A stretch of DNA of 64,000 nt from a virus (Duplodnaviria > Caudoviricetes): IMG/VR virus record IMGVR_UViG_3300009826_000020, positions 19,019-83,018 of that record, one strand, 5' to 3'. The notes below the pieces were generated by a model. It had not been told where the DNA came from, did not search any database, and saw only the letters and a list, made by a program, of their open reading frames with translations. Positions within the stretch are counted from its first letter, which is position 1; each line of letters starts with the position of its first letter. The position numbers and the translations under genes are program-made. This document shows positions 8,240-63,090 of the stretch, piece by piece.

Positions 8240-8399
8240 GAAAAAGGAACCTTTTGGTGGTAAACAGGCTCCACCTTTTGGGAAAAAGGAGGCAAAGACC
8301 CCTGGTCGTAAGCCCCGCAAGGGCGAGGTAACCCCTACTGATAAGGCGATGGGAAAAGCAGAGCGGCATTATACGCCGAAGGGCCAGAAGAGTGGCTGA
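8232..8399 (+). CDS. 55-aa Lys-rich protein (not in ORF track)
   Basis: AAGGAG RBS, GTG start; MAEKKEPFGGKQAPPFGKKE...; fills the gap and overlaps the recA start. Confidence 0.7.
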   Translation: MAEKKEPFGGKQAPPFGKKEAKTPGRKPRKGEVTPTDKAMGKAERHYTPKGQKSG

Positions 8400-9492
8400 A
8401 AAGGCCGACAAGCGGCGCACCGTCGAAGAGGTCATAGCCCAGATAAATAAAGAGCTTGGCCCCGAGACAGTCGTCTGGGGATCCCAGATCCGCTATTCGA
8501 GCCTGCCCCGGATCTCGACCGGCTCCTTCTCTCTCGATATGGCCCTCGGTGGGGGCTGGCAGACCAACGCCTGGCACGAGATCTATGGCAACGAGAGTGC
8601 CGGGAAGACCACCATCATCCTGAAGACCATCGCTACCCAGCAGGCTGCTAACCCTGAGTTCACCGTGTTCTGGGTGGCGGCTGAGGAGTTCGTGCCCTCC
8701 TGGGCACAGGATCTCGGCTGTGACACTGACAGGATTCTGGTGATGCAGACCAACATCTTGGAGGAAGCTACTAATGCTGCCATCAAGGTTCTTGAGGAAC
8801 GTACTGTAGATGCCCTGGTCATTGACTCAATGCCCGCCCTCTCGCCGGTCACCGAGGCAGAGGGCACCATGGACGATCAGCAAATAGGGCTGGCCGCTCG
8901 CCTTTTGGGCAAGTTTTTCAGAAAAGCATATACGGCCATGAAGCGCAGTCTGGTTGAGGACGATAGGCCCGTGACCTGTTTCATCGTCAATCAGTGGCGG
9001 GAGAAAATAGGTGTCCTCTTTGGGGATCCCCGCACCACTCCAGGGGGTCGAGCCAAGAACTATTGGTTCACTACAAGGCTTGAATTGGCCCGTGACGACT
9101 GGCTGACTGAGGGCACCCGGCAGAATCAGCGCAAGGTCGGAATCACGATCAAGGCCAACACCACAAAGAACAAGAGCTACCCACCACAGCGGGTGGCCGT
9201 GGTGGACTTTTACTTCGACCGGAATGAGCTACAGATCCCGCCGGGATCGTACGATACGGCCAAGGAGCTTGTCACGATGGCCCTGGCGTGTGACCTCTTC
9301 AAGGTGAAGGGGGCCTACTACCACCTCGGTGAGCAGTCCTGGCACGGGCGTGCCGCCCTTGAGGAGCAGATCAGGTGGGATCTGACCTTGCAAGAGAAGC
9401 TCCGGGGTGATATTCATGATCAACTAGCAAAGGGGAGGAACCGGGAGGAGTCCAGCCCGACCCCTCGGCGGCTTGTCAGGACGAAGGAGTGA
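8392..9492 (+). CDS. recA: RecA/UvsX-like recombinase
   Basis: STGSFSLDMALGGG, Walker A GNESAGKTT, Walker B LVIDS, TTPGGRA. Confidence 0.95.
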   Translation: MAEKADKRRTVEEVIAQINKELGPETVVWGSQIRYSSLPRISTGSFSLDMALGGGWQTNAWHEIYGNESAGKTTIILKTIATQQAANPEFTVFWVAAEEFVPSWAQDLGCDTDRILVMQTNILEEATNAAIKVLEERTVDALVIDSMPALSPVTEAEGTMDDQQIGLAARLLGKFFRKAYTAMKRSLVEDDRPVTCFIVNQWREKIGVLFGDPRTTPGGRAKNYWFTTRLELARDDWLTEGTRQNQRKVGITIKANTTKNKSYPPQRVAVVDFYFDRNELQIPPGSYDTAKELVTMALACDLFKVKGAYYHLGEQSWHGRAALEEQIRWDLTLQEKLRGDIHDQLAKGRNREESSPTPRRLVRTKE

Positions 9493-10097
9493 AGGCGGGA
9501 ACCCGCCTGTGGAGGCGGCAAGAACAGCAAGGGATGGAGCGATTTGGCGGTGTCCAGAACCCACGTTCTGGTGCGAATTGGAACCGAAAAAACGACGGTC
9601 GAACGCCCCGGGAACTCGTTGAATTCAAGCGAACCGACAACACTAGCTCCATTACGCTCAAGCACGCCGACCTCGACGCCCTCTACCGACACGCAGTGGT
9701 CGAGTCTCGCATCCCAGTTCTCTGCTTTGAGCTTCACGGAAGGGATTGGGTCGTACTCCCAGAACCCGACTATCACGAATTGGTTTTTCATCGACCAGAA
9801 TCAACTCATGCAGAACCTCTACGTTCGGGAGCGGCCCGACTGGTTCGACCACGCAAAATGTCTTGGCGTCAACGCCAGCAGCCCGACGAATCTGTTTTAC
9901 GCCGAGGGGCAGCAGAACAACGCCCAGGTACAGGCGGCAAAGGCCGTGTGCAACGGGACGCACCCGGAGCATCCGGGTCGGTGCCCGGTACTGGAGGAGT
10001 GTCTCGACTACGCAATCGAGAACAGCGAGAGGTTCGGAGTCTGGGGCGGGTGCAGCGAAAGGGAACGGCGGCGGATAAAGCGCCAGAGACACCGTGA
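9489..10097 (+). CDS. PD-(D/E)xK Holliday-junction resolvase-like protein (first ~100 aa); C-terminal half overprints whiB
   Basis: EQ...PRSGA...KNDG...LVEFKRT nuclease pattern; GTGA overlaps at both ends. Confidence 0.75.
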   Translation: MKAGTRLWRRQEQQGMERFGGVQNPRSGANWNRKNDGRTPRELVEFKRTDNTSSITLKHADLDALYRHAVVESRIPVLCFELHGRDWVVLPEPDYHELVFHRPESTHAEPLRSGAARLVRPRKMSWRQRQQPDESVLRRGAAEQRPGTGGKGRVQRDAPGASGSVPGTGGVSRLRNREQREVRSLGRVQRKGTAADKAPETP

Positions 10098-12608: not shown

Positions 12609-12893
12609 ATGACAACGAAAAAGCCCAGCCCTTTTGATGGCCTCTTCATGGAGGACATTCTTGGGGCGATCAGACAGGGGGTTCACGATGCCTTTAGCGA
12701 GAAGCTGAAATATCTCTCGTTGGGGCAGGTAATGAACTCTATCAATGATGGTGTTGACACAGCATTCTCACGTCACTTAATTGGTAACCTCGACGGCTTC
12801 GTGGACAATCACAGTGGGCGTGATGTACTTGAGGACGGTGTTAAAGAAGCAACGGCGGGGTACCTACAGCACTACGGTCACCTACCTCGGTGA
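12609..12893 (+). CDS. hypothetical protein
   Basis: GAGGAG RBS; GTGA overlap with ruvC. Confidence 0.65.
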   Translation: MTTKKPSPFDGLFMEDILGAIRQGVHDAFSEKLKYLSLGQVMNSINDGVDTAFSRHLIGNLDGFVDNHSGRDVLEDGVKEATAGYLQHYGHLPR

Positions 12894-13486
12894 CTGACGT
12901 CTATGTCGGTATTGACCCTGGATCACGAAATTGTGCCCTGGTCGCATGGTCGCCCACCAGAGGTCTTATAACCACCTGGAAGCCCACCGGCACGATGCCC
13001 ACCGGGGTGCTGCGCCTCAAGCGGCTGATGGTGGATATTTCCCAGGAGTTGGGGAAGCTCGACGGGATCCAGAAAATCGCCCTAGAGGCTTACTCTATGG
13101 CCGAGAAATACGGCCAGCACGCCTCCGGTGAGGTGGGAGCGGCTATCAAGCTCACCATCCTCGGCCATTTCAGCTACGACCTGCGGGCATTCCCTGTTCT
13201 GGTCGCTCCGCAGCAACTCAAGAAATTCGTCTCCGGCAATGGCAACACGAAAAAGGAGATGATCCCCAAAGAGGTTTTGAAGCGGTGGGGGATGGATTTC
13301 AACGACACGAATATCGCAGAGGCGTACGTACTCGCCCGGATCGCCCATGCCGTGGATGCCGAACCAGAGATGACCGGGTTCCAGCGGGACGTGGTGAAGG
13401 CCCTGGAGGGTCGCACCGAGGCCCCTCCAGGGGGCTATGAGGGGATGCGGAAGGGAAGACGTAGGCTGGTCCGCATCGGGGCATAG
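12890..13486 (+). CDS. ruvC: RuvC-like Holliday junction resolvase
   Basis: YVGIDPG, IALEAY, LKKFVSGNGNTKKEMI, DTNIAEAYVLA. Confidence 0.88.
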   Translation: MTDVYVGIDPGSRNCALVAWSPTRGLITTWKPTGTMPTGVLRLKRLMVDISQELGKLDGIQKIALEAYSMAEKYGQHASGEVGAAIKLTILGHFSYDLRAFPVLVAPQQLKKFVSGNGNTKKEMIPKEVLKRWGMDFNDTNIAEAYVLARIAHAVDAEPEMTGFQRDVVKALEGRTEAPPGGYEGMRKGRRRLVRIGA

Positions 13487-17398: not shown

Positions 17399-19266
17399 GT
17401 ACCTCGCCAGTTTCCCTCGGGACGGTCTCGGATATTATCCCGTCCTCGATCATCGTCCCCCCTGTCGATTACACCAGCCGTGATTATGCCTCGCTGGTGA
17501 ACGACATGCTCAACCTGATCCCGAGCTATTTGCCGGAGTGGACCGACCGGTCTCCAGGGGATTTTGGCATCGTGATGCTGGAATTGTTTGCCTACGTGGG
17601 CGACATCCTGAATTTCTACTCAGACCGTATCGCCAATGAGGCGTATATCGGTACAGCCCAGCAGCGGCAGTCGGTGCTGAATATCGCCAACATGCTGGAC
17701 TACACGCCTCATGGCAATGTGGCGGCGAGCGTTGTGCTCAGTTTCACGATCTCCTCGCCCTCGGGTCCTGTCCTTATTCCACAAGGGTCCCAGGTCTCCA
17801 CCATGCTCACGGGTATCAAGGCCACGATCTTCGAGACGGTGGAAGATCTCTGGGTTTATGGGGACGGTATCTCCACCACAAAAGTCATTACCAGTAATGG
17901 TCTGCCGAATCAGACCATTCTGATGGACGATCCTTCACTGCCTTACCCCTCTTACAATTTTACCGGTGGTTCCGAGCATCAATCGGTTTCGGTTGGCGGT
18001 GAGAACTGGCCGATCTCGGCTGGTAATGAATTCCATGGGATCGGGACGGACAAGCTCTACACTGTGATCAACGGTAATACAATCCAGTTCGGAAATGGGA
18101 TCAACGCCGCCATCCCCCCTGCTGGTCAGTCGATAATCGTCACCTTTATACCTGCAGTCCCGGGCACCTACGTGGGTCAGGTCAATGCTCTCCAGGGGGA
18201 GAGCCAGATCGGTGAGGGTATCGGGATCTCTGATGGTACGCCCAACCAGCAATATACCCTCTTCAATACCCCGGTGGTAGACGGCTCGATCCAGGTCTTT
18301 ATCAACGAGGGTGCGACTCCCACCGAGTGGATCTATCACCAGCGGATGATCGATGCCTTCTCCTCAGAGGGCGCATATACCTATGACGTGGACGCCAACG
18401 GTGTCGTCACCATTCGATTCGGGGATGGGATCTCAGGACGCATTCCACCCCAGGGTGTGCTGATTTCTGCCAACTATATGGTCGGTGGTGGGTCTATTGG
18501 CAATGTCGCCGCCCATTCCATCACCCAGATGATGTCCGGCATTACCGGTGTGGTTGCTGTCGACAACCCGGATGCTGCCACAGGTGGAGCCGACCAGGAG
18601 ACCATCGACCACATCCGCATCCACGCTCCCCTGTCGATGTCTGCCATCAACAGGGCCGTGACCCTGGACGACTACGCCGCTCTCACGCTCAACGTCCCGC
18701 AGATCGCCAAGGCCGCAGCCATGTCGACTGCCTACAACCAGGTGAACATTTTCATTCATCCAGCGGGTGATTTTCTTGCCACTGGCCCTGAGGACACCAC
18801 TGGAATAGCTACCCTGACGAGGCGTGTCAATGCTCTCCTGCCCTCGCTGACGAATTCCGGCTACACGGGCTACCTTGACGACAAGAAAATGGTGAGTACG
18901 TCCGTTGTCATTCTGCCTCCGCAGTACGATAATAAAGGCGTGCGCCTGACCGGCTATGTTCCCTGTAATGTCACGGCTACTGTCCAGGTCTTGCCCCAGT
19001 ATCATCAGTCGTCTGTCCGGTCACTGGCAGAAGCGGCCCTTCGTAATCTCTTTCTCTTCTCGGTGGTGGATTTTGGATCTCGAATCACACTATCGAGCGT
19101 CTATCATGCCCTCATGAATGTCGAGGGTGTTGACTACGTCAATGTCAACCTCATGGCCCGCAATGAGGCGGATCAGTCAGCGGCTCCTGCTGACATCGAG
19201 TGTGAGGCGTACGAGATCCCCAGGGCCTACCAGATCAACGTCAACGCCAACGGGGGGGTGTTGTAA
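17395..19266 (+). CDS. baseplate J / gp6-like wedge protein
   Basis: DYTSRDY, WTD..PGDFG.VMLELFAY.GD.L.FY.DR.ANE, RFGDG..GRIP, GGADQET, RAVTLDDY. Confidence 0.92.
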   Translation: MSTSPVSLGTVSDIIPSSIIVPPVDYTSRDYASLVNDMLNLIPSYLPEWTDRSPGDFGIVMLELFAYVGDILNFYSDRIANEAYIGTAQQRQSVLNIANMLDYTPHGNVAASVVLSFTISSPSGPVLIPQGSQVSTMLTGIKATIFETVEDLWVYGDGISTTKVITSNGLPNQTILMDDPSLPYPSYNFTGGSEHQSVSVGGENWPISAGNEFHGIGTDKLYTVINGNTIQFGNGINAAIPPAGQSIIVTFIPAVPGTYVGQVNALQGESQIGEGIGISDGTPNQQYTLFNTPVVDGSIQVFINEGATPTEWIYHQRMIDAFSSEGAYTYDVDANGVVTIRFGDGISGRIPPQGVLISANYMVGGGSIGNVAAHSITQMMSGITGVVAVDNPDAATGGADQETIDHIRIHAPLSMSAINRAVTLDDYAALTLNVPQIAKAAAMSTAYNQVNIFIHPAGDFLATGPEDTTGIATLTRRVNALLPSLTNSGYTGYLDDKKMVSTSVVILPPQYDNKGVRLTGYVPCNVTATVQVLPQYHQSSVRSLAEAALRNLFLFSVVDFGSRITLSSVYHALMNVEGVDYVNVNLMARNEADQSAAPADIECEAYEIPRAYQINVNANGGVL

Positions 19267-59095: not shown

Positions 59096-59347
59096 TTATG
59101 AGGGTAGCACGTTGTCGAGCATGCCTAGTGCTGCCTCAAGGTGTAGGCGCAATTCATGTAGCTGTGTGTCCTGCTCCTCACCGGTTGCAGCGTGCCGGTA
59201 ATAGGTGACCGCCCGCCCCGCCGACATGATGGCCAGGTCGATCTGGCTGACGACCTCGCCCCGGGGCAGGGTCTCCGACCGGCGGCGGGCAGCCGCCCAG
59301 TAGCTCTCCTCCCGCCGCCCCCGACGCCAGGCTTTAAGAGCCGACAC
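59096..59347 (-). CDS. hypothetical protein
   Basis: GTG at 59347 overlapping the upstream stop region; helical; start uncertain. Confidence 0.55.
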   Translation of the reverse strand: MSALKAWRRGRREESYWAAARRRSETLPRGEVVSQIDLAIMSAGRAVTYYRHAATGEEQDTQLHELRLHLEAALGMLDNVLPS

Positions 59348-59720
59348 GCACCAGCCGCCGTCGAGGCGCAGGCTCAGGTTCTGGTGTCGGCAGCGGGGTG
59401 ATCGTGGCTCCCTCGCTCTTCGGCTTCCTGCGCTTGGCGGCGTCGGCTGCTTTCGCCTCGGGGGAGCCAGGTACCAATCCGTCCTTCCTGGGCCTCCCAC
59501 GGGGCCGTACAGCCCCGTTCGCCGGATGGGCTGATGCTGGTGTCTTCTGACGCTCAGGACGCCTCTGTGAGCCTTCAGGGGCCTCAGTGAGCAGTTCTAT
59601 CACCTGCATGGCCCACTCGATATCGGCCTGCCAGTCGGCTTCGCCGTTTACGGCATCCATCAGGTTCCGCAGGTGCTCGGCTGCTTCAGCGGTGGTACCC
59701 GGTATCTCGATTTTGCTCAC
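59334..59720 (-). CDS. AT-hook-containing protein
   Basis: GGAG RBS, GTGA overlap; RPRGRPRK; ends RRRLVRVGS. Confidence 0.72.
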   Translation of the reverse strand: MSKIEIPGTTAEAAEHLRNLMDAVNGEADWQADIEWAMQVIELLTEAPEGSQRRPERQKTPASAHPANGAVRPRGRPRKDGLVPGSPEAKAADAAKRRKPKSEGATITPLPTPEPEPAPRRRLVRVGS

Positions 59721-60064
59721 TTGCTCTCCAGTTCGTTCGCCCTGGCGACGGTGCTGCGCCAGTCCTTTTCCACAGGCTGGCCGCTCAGGATCCTGGGTGC
59801 CTTTCCAGGCGTCCATATACCTACGGCGTAGGCTCGCTGCGACCACCGGCACATAATACCCACGCCACGCCGCCACGGGGGCAAAATTTCCCGGGTCAAA
59901 GCGATGGAGATTCGTCGCTGGCGGGGATTGGGCTGGCCCTGCCAGGAGTAGAAGATCAGGAAAGAGGAAGTGTTATCAGGAACCGAGCGGGGGTCGGGGA
60001 GCTTCGGCAGAATCCACTCGTCGTTCTCCTCGGGGTCGACGTAGGCGTCGGGGTGTATCTCCAT
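59717..60064 (-). CDS. hypothetical protein (possibly fused to the upstream Pup-like segment)
   Basis: 115-aa ORF; ATG directly after a C6 run. Confidence 0.65.
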   Translation of the reverse strand: MEIHPDAYVDPEENDEWILPKLPDPRSVPDNTSSFLIFYSWQGQPNPRQRRISIALTREILPPWRRGVGIMCRWSQRAYAVGIWTPGKAPRILSGQPVEKDWRSTVARANELESK

Positions 60065-60167
60065 GGGGGGTGTTCTCTTCTAATACCTTGTCGATTTGAG
60101 CGAGCAGACTGGCGGTCTGCTCACTTACTTTTGGGTCTGGTTTCTGCTCCGACTTCTTTTGGCGCAC
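59976..60167 (-). CDS. Pup-like peptide
   Basis: GGGAG RBS + GTG; EQTASLLAQIDKVLEEN vs Pup EETDDLLDEIDDVLEEN. Confidence 0.6.
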   Translation of the reverse strand: MRQKKSEQKPDPKVSEQTASLLAQIDKVLEENTPHGDTPRRLRRPRGERRVDSAEAPRPPLGS

Positions 60168-60176
60168 ACCATCTCC

Positions 60177-60704
60177 CTACTCGGCTGCCCCCCAGCCTCC
60201 TCTTTCGCCGCCACCGTCTGGATGCTCTGGATGCTCGTTCTCCCCCAGCATGAATCCATGCGCCCCCCGAATGAAAGCGTGCGTCGATCCCGACATCTTG
60301 AATTGGTGCCAGGTGGAGGGCGGAATTCCGTTCCACTGCCAGGGCGTTCCGTCCGAGGTGAAAATCACCTCGACTGTTTGTCGGTTCCTCGAATACCTGG
60401 CCATCTGGGTGTATTTACGCATCGGTGACCGGGTATGCGTCGGCCAGTAATAGTCCCAGTCATCGTGGCTCTGGTAATTGGGCCGGTTCCGCTCTTCTGG
60501 GATGGTCGGGAAGTCCTGGGTGGCCTCCTGGCGTGCCTTTTGAAAGCTGGCTTCCTGCCGGTAGCTCCAGGGCTGATCTTCTGGTCGGTCCCCACTTGAA
60601 CCACGCTGGGCCGCTCGATCCGCTCGAACCCGATAGACGCTGACGCCCCTGCGGGCCGCTTCAGCCCGCAGGGATTCGGATCGAGGGTGTACAGGGGGCG
60701 GCAA
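60177..60704 (-). CDS. KTSC-like domain protein
   Basis: ARYSRNRQTVEVIF..GTPWQWNGIPPSTWHQFKMSGS..FI; TAA-TTG junction. Confidence 0.7.
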   Translation of the reverse strand: MPPPVHPRSESLRAEAARRGVSVYRVRADRAAQRGSSGDRPEDQPWSYRQEASFQKARQEATQDFPTIPEERNRPNYQSHDDWDYYWPTHTRSPMRKYTQMARYSRNRQTVEVIFTSDGTPWQWNGIPPSTWHQFKMSGSTHAFIRGAHGFMLGENEHPEHPDGGGERGGWGAAE

Positions 60705-61399: not shown

Positions 61400-61675
61400 A
61401 TGAGCGTGGCCCTGAATACGCACCAGTTCCAAGAAAAACCGAACCGGTTTATGCCCAAGACTCGTGTGCGTGTGGACAAGCTCGTCGCCACCCAGGGCAA
61501 GGTCAACGAGAAAAAGGTCCATGCCATCGCCCAAAAATCCCCCGATGAGATTTCCGCAACTCCCGTGGTGAGCAGTAGGCACAAGGGCTACTACCACGTC
61601 CTCGACGGCCACCATCGGGTGGGAGCCGCCATAGAGCGGGGTGACAAATACATCACCGTGAAAAGAGTCCGATGA
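61400..61675 (+). CDS. ParB/Srx-like N-terminal domain protein
   Basis: KLVATQ, PVV...YHVLDGHHRVGAA. Confidence 0.82.
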   Translation: MSVALNTHQFQEKPNRFMPKTRVRVDKLVATQGKVNEKKVHAIAQKSPDEISATPVVSSRHKGYYHVLDGHHRVGAAIERGDKYITVKRVR

Positions 61676-62267: not shown

Positions 62268-62455
62268 GTCGCCACGCCAATTTCCTTCAGGGCTTCCATG
62301 AACACGCCCTCACCACCAACCAGTATTCCCCAGGTCCCCCTGGAGGCCCACCTGGAAAAGGCAAGGGTCACTACTTCGTCCCTGAGTCGAAAGGCTCCCA
62401 GTGGTGCTCTGTCTGCGGGCAGCACTCCACCACTACCTCCCATCCGAGCCGATGA
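62264..62455 (+). CDS. hypothetical protein (CxxC..H)
   Basis: coupled; GH.F...WCSVCGQH. Confidence 0.62.
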   Translation: MSRHANFLQGFHEHALTTNQYSPGPPGGPPGKGKGHYFVPESKGSQWCSVCGQHSTTTSHPSR

Positions 62456-63090
62456 GTCACGCCGCCCTCTCCCGCCAGCAGTTCCCGGTTCATTCCTGGC
62501 AGACGGCGGATCCGCCCCCCTTCCCTATCGGTCCTGCCTCTGCCCAACGGAAGTCAGCCGGGGATTGGATAGGAAAACACGTTCACTCCACCGTGAAGCC
62601 CTCTGAAGAAGAGGGGTCGTATGTCATGAGTTCCTCTGGCATAAATGCCGTGGCTCGTGGGGCGAGTGACGTGCCGCCGGAGTTTAGGAAGGAGATGCAG
62701 CCTATCATCAAGGCTGTCGATAAATCGATTGCCGGGAGTCATGTGGACGTCAATACGACGGCCTATCGAGGTCAGCCGAAATCCATCCTTGCCGGGAAAA
62801 AGCGTGGTGACATAATTACCGACCCTGGTTTTAGCTCGACATCGCTCCTGAACCGTACAGCCGAAAGTTATACGGGGTCCAGTGGTGAGGTTGCCGAAGT
62901 ACGTATTCCTCAGGGTACCGAGGTCGGTGCGCCCACGATGAACATCAACCGGCAGATGCACGGGGCTGGTCGAGGAAATGCCGATCAGGAACTCCTCCTC
63001 GGTCGAGGCAGAAAATACATGGTCACCCGCACAGGCCCCCACCCGAGGGTGGAAGTGGTGCCCCGCTATGAACAGGGGAAGCTGTTTTGA
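62452..63090 (+). CDS. ADP-ribosyltransferase, VIP2/C3/Alt-like (R-S-E clade)
   Basis: YVMSSSGINAVARG, AYRG, GFSSTS, EVRIPQG, DQELLLGRG. Confidence 0.88.
   Translation: MSHAALSRQQFPVHSWQTADPPPFPIGPASAQRKSAGDWIGKHVHSTVKPSEEEGSYVMSSSGINAVARGASDVPPEFRKEMQPIIKAVDKSIAGSHVDVNTTAYRGQPKSILAGKKRGDIITDPGFSSTSLLNRTAESYTGSSGEVAEVRIPQGTEVGAPTMNINRQMHGAGRGNADQELLLGRGRKYMVTRTGPHPRVEVVPRYEQGKLF

Follow-up and report, generated by a model that had tools for sequence, protein, structure and literature searches.

The locus described here lies in a stretch of viral DNA of 64,000 nucleotides (nt), hereafter the window, which corresponds to positions 19,019 to 83,018 of the IMG/VR record IMGVR_UViG_3300009826_000020, a linear virus record of 83 kb that is ~71% complete. 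Two small open reading frames (ORFs) on its minus strand, here called A and B, overlap out of frame, and the single helix encoded by A resembles the segment of Pup that docks on the coiled coil of the ATPase ARC/Mpa (Table 1). An earlier reading of this DNA, made from its letters and a list of its ORFs (the sequence-only reading), had described a Pup-like helix, a run of six C and an ORF of 115 amino acids (aa) that the removal of one C would join to it; these sequence facts were confirmed in the sequence and in the ORF list. The translation of A contains EQTASLLAQIDKVLEEN, and B, whose ATG begins with the middle base of the CAT codon of A, stands in the +1 frame relative to A.

Table 1. Features of the A-B locus, in coordinates of the window
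Feature	Position	Strand	Description
ORF A	60167..59976	minus	GTG start, 63 aa; Lys-rich N-terminus, one helix, basic Pro/Arg-rich tail
Pup-like segment of ORF A (residues 8-33)	60069..60146	minus	Aligns with positions 31-56 of 69 in Pfam Pup and with ~27-53 of M. tuberculosis Pup
GGGAG Shine-Dalgarno-like element	60172..60176	minus	4 nt upstream of the GTG of A, directly after the KTSC stop codon; read from the sequence
C6 homopolymer	60065..60070	minus	Thr-Pro codons of A, immediately 5' of the ATG of B; specific to this genome
Dual-coding overlap	59976..60064	minus	89 nt; basic tail of A, HGDTPRRLRRPRGERR, and acidic N-terminus of B, MEIHPDAYVDPEENDEW, in the +1 frame
ORF B	59717..60064	minus	115 aa; disordered acidic N-terminus, five-strand beta core, C-terminal helix
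KTSC-domain gene	60177..60704	minus	175 aa, upstream; Pfam KTSC E 7.5e-6; always directly 5' of A
Basic AT-hook-like gene	59334..59720	minus	128 aa, downstream; its GTG overlaps the TGA of B (GTGA); ends PRRRLVRVGS

A comparison set of 17 loci was used, consisting of the window plus 16 more distinct loci taken from metagenomes and IMG/VR, together with a profile of the A family (A3) built from 14 sequences. The loci are diverged and every one of them encodes an A-like peptide between the KTSC gene and B, the homologous ORFs in the 16 other loci being 56–79 aa long. In the relatives the start of A is usually ATG, situated 0–5 nt past the KTSC stop and behind GGGGAG, and in one of them (L006) the start of A and the KTSC stop overlap as TAATG. 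Variation in the helix block of A by codon position (0.37/0.34/0.58) is highest at the third position, which is a coding substitution pattern. With its presence in all 17 loci, this pattern and a tail under selection (see below), A is a real gene. The structure predicted by AlphaFold2 (AF2) shows a single helix at residues 12–31 and disorder elsewhere. Within the helix residues L22, I25, D26, L29 and E31 (numbering of A) are invariant in the family and N32 nearly so, and the core of the tail, RRLRRPRG.RLG, is kept even in the most divergent members.

When CCCC is read as one codon the two ORFs are joined into the fused sequence VLEENTPMEIHPDAYVD, and the sequence-only reading had suggested that A might in this way be part of one protein with B, restoring an AYV close to where Pup has it. 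The homologues speak against this suggestion. At the same junction the C6 run is absent from 16 of the 16 other loci, all of which keep the two-frame relation; since the layout persists without the homopolymer, an error of sequencing in the C run is excluded as its cause. Nor does the restored AYV extend the match to the Pup hidden Markov model (HMM), which in the fused reading stays at residues 8–33 (20.0 bits). No conserved slippery site was found at the A-B junction, where sequences such as ACC CCC CAT, GAA TGG CAT, ACC ATT CAT, AAG GTT CTT and CCG ATT GAG occur among the loci. At the homologous junction position B has a start of its own in the 17 loci (ATG in 12, TTG in 5), and its frame is closed 5–19 codons upstream of this start in all but one of 14 loci examined. 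Judged by these comparisons the locus is two separate genes overlapping out of frame and not one broken gene, and a programmed frameshift joining A and B is unlikely.

The TTG starts of B are located inside the coding sequence of A at L007:1269, L010:3001, L012:3001, L015:2995 and L019:2986; for a rare start codon, five out of 17 is unusually many. Expression of B may be restricted to a low level or tied to ribosomes engaged in translating A.

The overlap between A and B, 70–100 nt long and out of frame, is kept in 17 of 17 loci and carries marks of selection in both frames. Synonymous differences in B are fewer within the overlap (496 observed) than expected from the rest of the gene (804). 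In 13 of 14 loci the residues W-V-L-P of B are written TGG GTA CTA CCC, with rare codons frozen, which is exactly what A needs to read G-T-T, and S-V-P-D of B is written TCA GTT CCT GAC, where the invariant TCA GTT CCT provides the SS-stop of A; the C-termini of the family end in LSS, that of A in the window in PPLGS. The frame of A remains open for 26–34 codons past the start of B in all 17 loci, against a median of 6–12 codons under synonymous resampling of B (per-locus P 0.04–0.23). On the evidence of these substitution patterns both frames of the overlap are under selection and A and B are an overprinted gene pair.

Part of this constraint is visible as a 12-mer, TGGGTACTACCC, which is identical in 14 fetched loci (12 of them distinct) despite ~50% divergence at neighbouring silent sites. 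It is found ~45–55 nt into B in L003, L004, L006, L007 and L010-L019 (e.g. L010:3043-3054) and includes the palindrome GGGTA-C-TACCC. Its identity is explained by dual coding, for W-V-L-P in B and G-T-T in A, although the nucleic acid itself may also have a role there. The window's own copy of the site reads TGGATTCTGCCG instead of the 12-mer, and A of the window has therefore lost the LGTT motif that is otherwise kept in the tail of the family.

Like other overprinted gene pairs of phages and viruses, A and B share a long conserved overlap (70–100 nt) in which both frames are open and constrained and in which the overlapped parts are disordered in both products; they differ from such pairs in that the same DNA gives a basic tail to one protein and an acidic N-terminus to the other. 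The locus is a clean and well-sampled example of an out-of-frame overlap that is conserved and in which selection can be measured on both frames; standard gene callers cope badly with this type and usually annotate only one of the two genes.

A search of ORF A against Pfam revealed Pup as its sole family match (E 0.0019, 19.5 bits; gathering cut-off 27 bits). When the search with PF05639 was extended to the homologues, 12 of the 14 members of the A family matched the Pup model, all of them below this threshold, at HMM positions ~26–56 of 69 and with a best E of 6e-5; Pup was their commonest match. With the family profile run against the PDB, Pup chains took ranks 1–6 (best E 1.1e-6, 31.6 bits), residues 8–34 of A being placed on residues 27–53 of Pup, and the next matches were designed coiled coils from E 0.064, so that Pup stands ~15 bits above the best generic coiled coil (16.4 bits). 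An hhalign comparison of the A family with four real Pups from Acidimicrobiia genomes gave 94% probability (E 1.3e-7). Against A3 the real Acidimicrobiia Pups scored 17.9–19.0 bits, compared with a maximum of 10.5 bits among 10,000 composition-matched shuffled Pups, and the Pup of M. tuberculosis scored higher (31 bits) than those of Acidimicrobiia (18–19 bits). In these alignments L22, I25, D26, L29, E31 and N32 of A stand opposite L40, I43, D44, L47, E49 and N50 of Pup. The Pup-like helix claimed for the window by the sequence-only reading is thus a feature of the family as a whole. By its sequence matches the helix of A specifically resembles Pup's central helix, from which it is probably derived.

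Two other leads from these searches were rejected. A second weak match to the Pup HMM in the genome (window ~56951-61, minus strand, 13.5 bits) is treated as noise because its ORF is overlapped by a longer ORF on the plus strand. The A profile also retrieved proteins with BRCA2 repeats, and these were rejected as homologues, the matches being weak and summed over repeats; A itself is no BRC repeat (PF00634), having no RAD51-binding FxxA motif and matching only the helical half of the repeats. The proteins concerned include P0013, P0017, P0018 and P0021 of the metagenome library, which are 1131–1659 aa long and of which the three scanned against Pfam carry 12–14 BRCA2 (BRC) repeats. The helical half of the BRC repeats in these large proteins reads IMQQIDRSLQENSAE and grazes the Pfam Pup model, with 25 bits summed.

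The likeness to Pup is confined to one functional part of it. Residues 21–51 of Pup form a helix that binds the coiled coil of Mpa antiparallel, while the N-terminal segment, which is disordered, threads into the ATPase pore, where it takes ~22 residues to reach from the entrance to the pore loops (PMC8755798). The central helix motif that binds the ARC/Mpa coiled coil (..LLDEID.VLE.N..) is present in the A family according to Pfam, profile and hhalign results, and the match between A and Pup covers this docking helix only. Residue 1 of A corresponds to about residue 19 of Pup, and against the Acidimicrobiia Pups a gap of ~14 residues opens at the N-terminal segment. The threading segment of Pup (~20 residues before the docking helix) was accordingly not found in A, either in the alignment or in the AF2 model with its helix from residue 12, since A starts roughly where the docking helix of Pup starts. 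At the other end, the FV..YVQKGG(Q/E) C-terminus of Pup was not found in A or its family, the HMM match stopping at position 56 of 69, and A is for this reason predicted to be neither ligatable by PafA nor processable by Dop. A ends in PPLGS and B in ELESK, and the earlier statement that neither reading has a terminal GGQ or GGE thus holds.

A and Pup (PF05639, TIGR03687; M. tuberculosis Rv2111c; PDB 3M9D, 3M91, 7PX9) have in common a length of ~60–70 aa, intrinsic disorder with one helix-forming segment, the motif ..D.LL.EID.(V/A)LEEN with the hydrophobic residues L40, I43 and L47 of Pup kept, and a place within the world of Actinomycetota. Unlike Pup, A has an N-terminus shorter by ~18–20 residues and no threader, carries as its last ~30 residues a Pro/Arg-rich tail that is encoded out of frame over the next gene, is basic, scores below the Pfam cut-off, and is encoded in a phage without Dop, PafA, ARC or proteasome genes nearby.

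The phage record carries genes for a tail sheath, baseplate J, a family A DNA polymerase and an SNF2 helicase. It also harbours two genes of the WhiB family, one at window 9841-10074 (plus strand) and one at C1:16568-16750 of the genome, outside the window (64.7 and 36.8 bits); the larger of these lies in an ORF of ~250 aa, which implies an extra domain. Of the four related records searched, three contain WhiB pairs, among them the two that are 98–100% complete (~115 kb), and the fourth is a 37% fragment with none; among the control genomes WhiB was found in the actinobacterium only. The two WhiB genes indicate that the host is an actinobacterium. A is a conserved, largely disordered microprotein of a clade of ~115-kb, WhiB-carrying, contractile-tailed Actinomycetota phages. 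The nearest bacterial relatives of the WhiB proteins are mostly from Acidimicrobiia (40–49% identity), a weak hint of a host in that class, and five of five Acidimicrobiia genomes tested carry Pup, ARC and Dop/PafA in one cluster. Actinomycetota are the main phylum using Pup. Neither this phage nor the four related records searched yielded a Pup ligase, a canonical Pup or an Mpa-like ATPase; the only AAA match there is weak and falls in a 200-aa ORF distant from the A locus.

Of the interpretation offered by the sequence-only reading, which regarded the ORF as a non-conjugatable Pup mimic or a built-in degron, the look-alike of the Mpa/ARC-docking helix without GGQ/E is retained and widened to the whole family, together with an actinobacterial host indicated by WhiB, while the fusion across the C6 run is given up. 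The reading favoured here, to which we assign a probability of about 40%, is that A may be a copy of the Pup docking helix that can be neither conjugated nor threaded, and that it acts as a decoy competing for the host receptor ARC/Mpa. According to this proposal A would be made early in infection and would dock on the N-terminal coiled coil of host ARC/Mpa, where it would be neither ligated to proteins nor pulled into the ATPase pore; it would instead compete as a decoy with pupylated proteins for the receptor, and so protect pupylated phage proteins or disturb the proteostasis of the host. Both the binding to ARC/Mpa and its effect are what we infer from the helix and from the parts of Pup that A has and lacks. 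A motive for such a decoy is offered by the published suggestion that mycobacteriophages avoid lysines in their proteins so as to evade pupylation (PMC10665810). The conserved basic tail of A (PRRLRRPRG.RLGTT), itself selected, probably adds a second contact.

A wider evolutionary account is put forward tentatively, as possible and somewhat short of even odds. In it a clade of actinophages would have cut Pup down to its docking helix and so obtained a plug for ARC/Mpa that is neither ligatable nor degradable, the first viral antagonist of the Pup-proteasome system, with the second half of the protein derived from overprinting; the basic tail of A and the acidic N-terminus of B may cooperate.

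Several observations weigh against the decoy. The best member of the A family reaches 24.3 bits with Pfam Pup and all members remain below the gathering score of 27 bits, and the matched stretch is short, ~25 residues of one amphipathic helix. Residues D41, E42 and D45 of Pup are mostly A, E/Q and K in the phage helix, which is far less acidic, and this could weaken a partly electrostatic interface; the whole A protein is basic, Pup acidic. The IDEAL domain (PF08858), a Firmicutes family, matches five of 14 members of the A family at E up to 1 (best 1.4e-4) through a short I-D-x-A-L motif, a weaker and rarer match than that to Pup, and the A profile matches the helical half of BRC repeats at 4–10 bits each, with totals of 40–84 bits summed over 4–10 repeats. 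The IDEAL and BRC-helix matches show that the ID..L.EN pattern occurs outside Pup as well. The host is resolved to phylum level only, and the neighbours KTSC, B and DUF6424 (see below) give no link to proteolysis.

Some of these observations also speak for the explanation that comes next to the decoy, in which the helix of A is Pup-like by convergence or chance. A would then be a small basic regulatory or nucleic-acid-binding protein, composed of an oligomerising amphipathic helix and an Arg-rich tail and with no link to the Pup-proteasome system, and it might have as partner B, or a hub that reads the recurrent RRLVR motif of the phage. We regard this as a serious possibility, though a doubtful one. 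The sub-threshold Pfam scores, the recurrence of the motif in unrelated helices, as seen in the weaker IDEAL and BRC-repeat matches, and the basic character of A are what such an origin would lead one to expect, and the tail PRRL(R/V)RP resembles the C-terminal P.RRLVR of three other phage proteins, that of the adjacent downstream gene included; moreover no Pup-system gene was found in the neighbourhood or in the phage genome. Chance or convergence accounts less easily for Pup outscoring the best generic coiled coil by ~15 bits (31.6 against 16.4), for the hhalign probability of 94%, for shuffled sequences that reach at most 10.5 bits where real Pups reach 18–19, for a match that spans exactly the receptor-binding helix with its hydrophobic positions kept, and for a host in the phylum that is the main user of Pup.

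It is improbable, although the tail lends itself to the idea, that A acts as an adaptor or degron in trans, with the helix sitting on ARC/Mpa and the basic tail holding a target that would be handed to the proteasome unpupylated. Independently of B the tail is both conserved and selected (frozen rare codons for G-T-T, conserved stop), and the most divergent members retain its RRLRRPRG.RLG core. Because Pup binds antiparallel, the tail of A would be directed away from the pore and would be available for cargo, as the geometry described for Pup suggests (PMC8755798). Since A has no threading segment the cargo would, however, need an initiation region of its own; no target was identified, and the copy of the tail in the window has lost the LGTT motif.

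More improbable still is an action of A on PafA or Dop, where the helix would fill part of the Pup-binding groove and inhibit pupylation or depupylation. The profile does align with the initial 15 residues of the 28-residue Pup peptides crystallised with these enzymes (7oy3_B and 7oxy_B, E ~0.007), and the Lys-rich N-terminus of A could in principle serve as a lysine sink; yet A has neither the second helix of Pup nor the C-terminal residues that reach into the active site, with the Pfam match ending at position 56 of 69, and neither is brought back in the fused reading. That A and B form one 148-aa gene with a built-in Pup-like degron, which a sequencing error in the C6 run would have split or a programmed +1 shift would join, is very improbable, for although CCC_CCC_C with ATG behind it could plausibly act as a +1 slip site in this genome and B uses the weak start TTG in five of 17 loci, the 16 loci without homopolymer share the two-frame layout, their junctions have no slippery motif in common, the start codon of B is kept at the same spot in all loci with its frame closed 5–19 codons upstream in all but one of 14, the frame of A runs 26–34 codons past the junction to a conserved stop, which would be pointless for a fusion, and the Pup HMM match is not lengthened.

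A literature search in a partial collection found no paper on a phage Pup mimic or on a phage inhibitor of Mpa, and the lysine-avoidance suggestion (PMC10665810) was the sole hint found of a role of the Pup-proteasome system in phage infection. If the decoy is true, A would be direct evidence of conflict between phages and the Pup degradation pathway, a natural template for peptides that block Mpa, a validated point of vulnerability in M. tuberculosis, and an example of a host tag turned into an inhibitor by the loss of both ends. The nearest functional parallel is PinA of phage T4, a phage inhibitor of the host Lon protease. As in the role proposed for A, a small early phage protein there neutralises an ATP-dependent degradation machine of the host; the two proteins have no sequence relation, and PinA acts on Lon, while the proposed target of A is ARC/Mpa and its proposed mode is mimicry of a host tag.

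The second gene of the pair, B, has homologues of 49–72% identity that all have the same start point. Its AF2 model reaches a predicted local distance difference test (pLDDT) score of 71, and it gave no Pfam or PHROG family, no lead in the ESM Atlas and no Foldseek match in the PDB. In a scan of viral contigs B alone found no relatives, while an alignment of B found ten loci; a prophage/host search with the same type of query, the B alignment, in 185,579 species genomes gave no match. PHROGs gave no match for A, the KTSC gene or the downstream gene, and blastn of the region against GenBank phages gave none.

The gene order around A is conserved in the relatives, with the KTSC gene directly upstream. 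In the place after B the relatives have a DUF6424 protein of 192–284 aa (L006:1038-1808, L007:1613-2407 and L021:1982-2836). The 128-aa downstream protein of the window has no DUF6424 domain and keeps the basic C-terminal part (RPRGRPRKDGLVPGSPEAK ... RRLVR). In the divergent neighbouring operon an ORF with an ADP-ribosyltransferase exoenzyme domain (PF03496, E 5e-9) is located at 62401-63090 (plus strand) of the window, adjoined by a ParB-like gene at 61400-61675.

Three proteins of the phage end in P.RRLVR followed by three residues (PTPRRLVRTKE, GRRRLVRIGA and PRRRLVRVGS) and are encoded at window 8392-9492 (plus), 12890-13486 (plus) and 59334-59720 (minus). When the genome was scanned for the motif, three of five matches were situated within the last 15 residues of a protein, and P.RRLVR may, judging from this position, be a shared short linear motif for a hub. 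The tail of A (59976-60064, minus) contains PRRLRRP, and that of the relative L013 contains PRRLVRRP.

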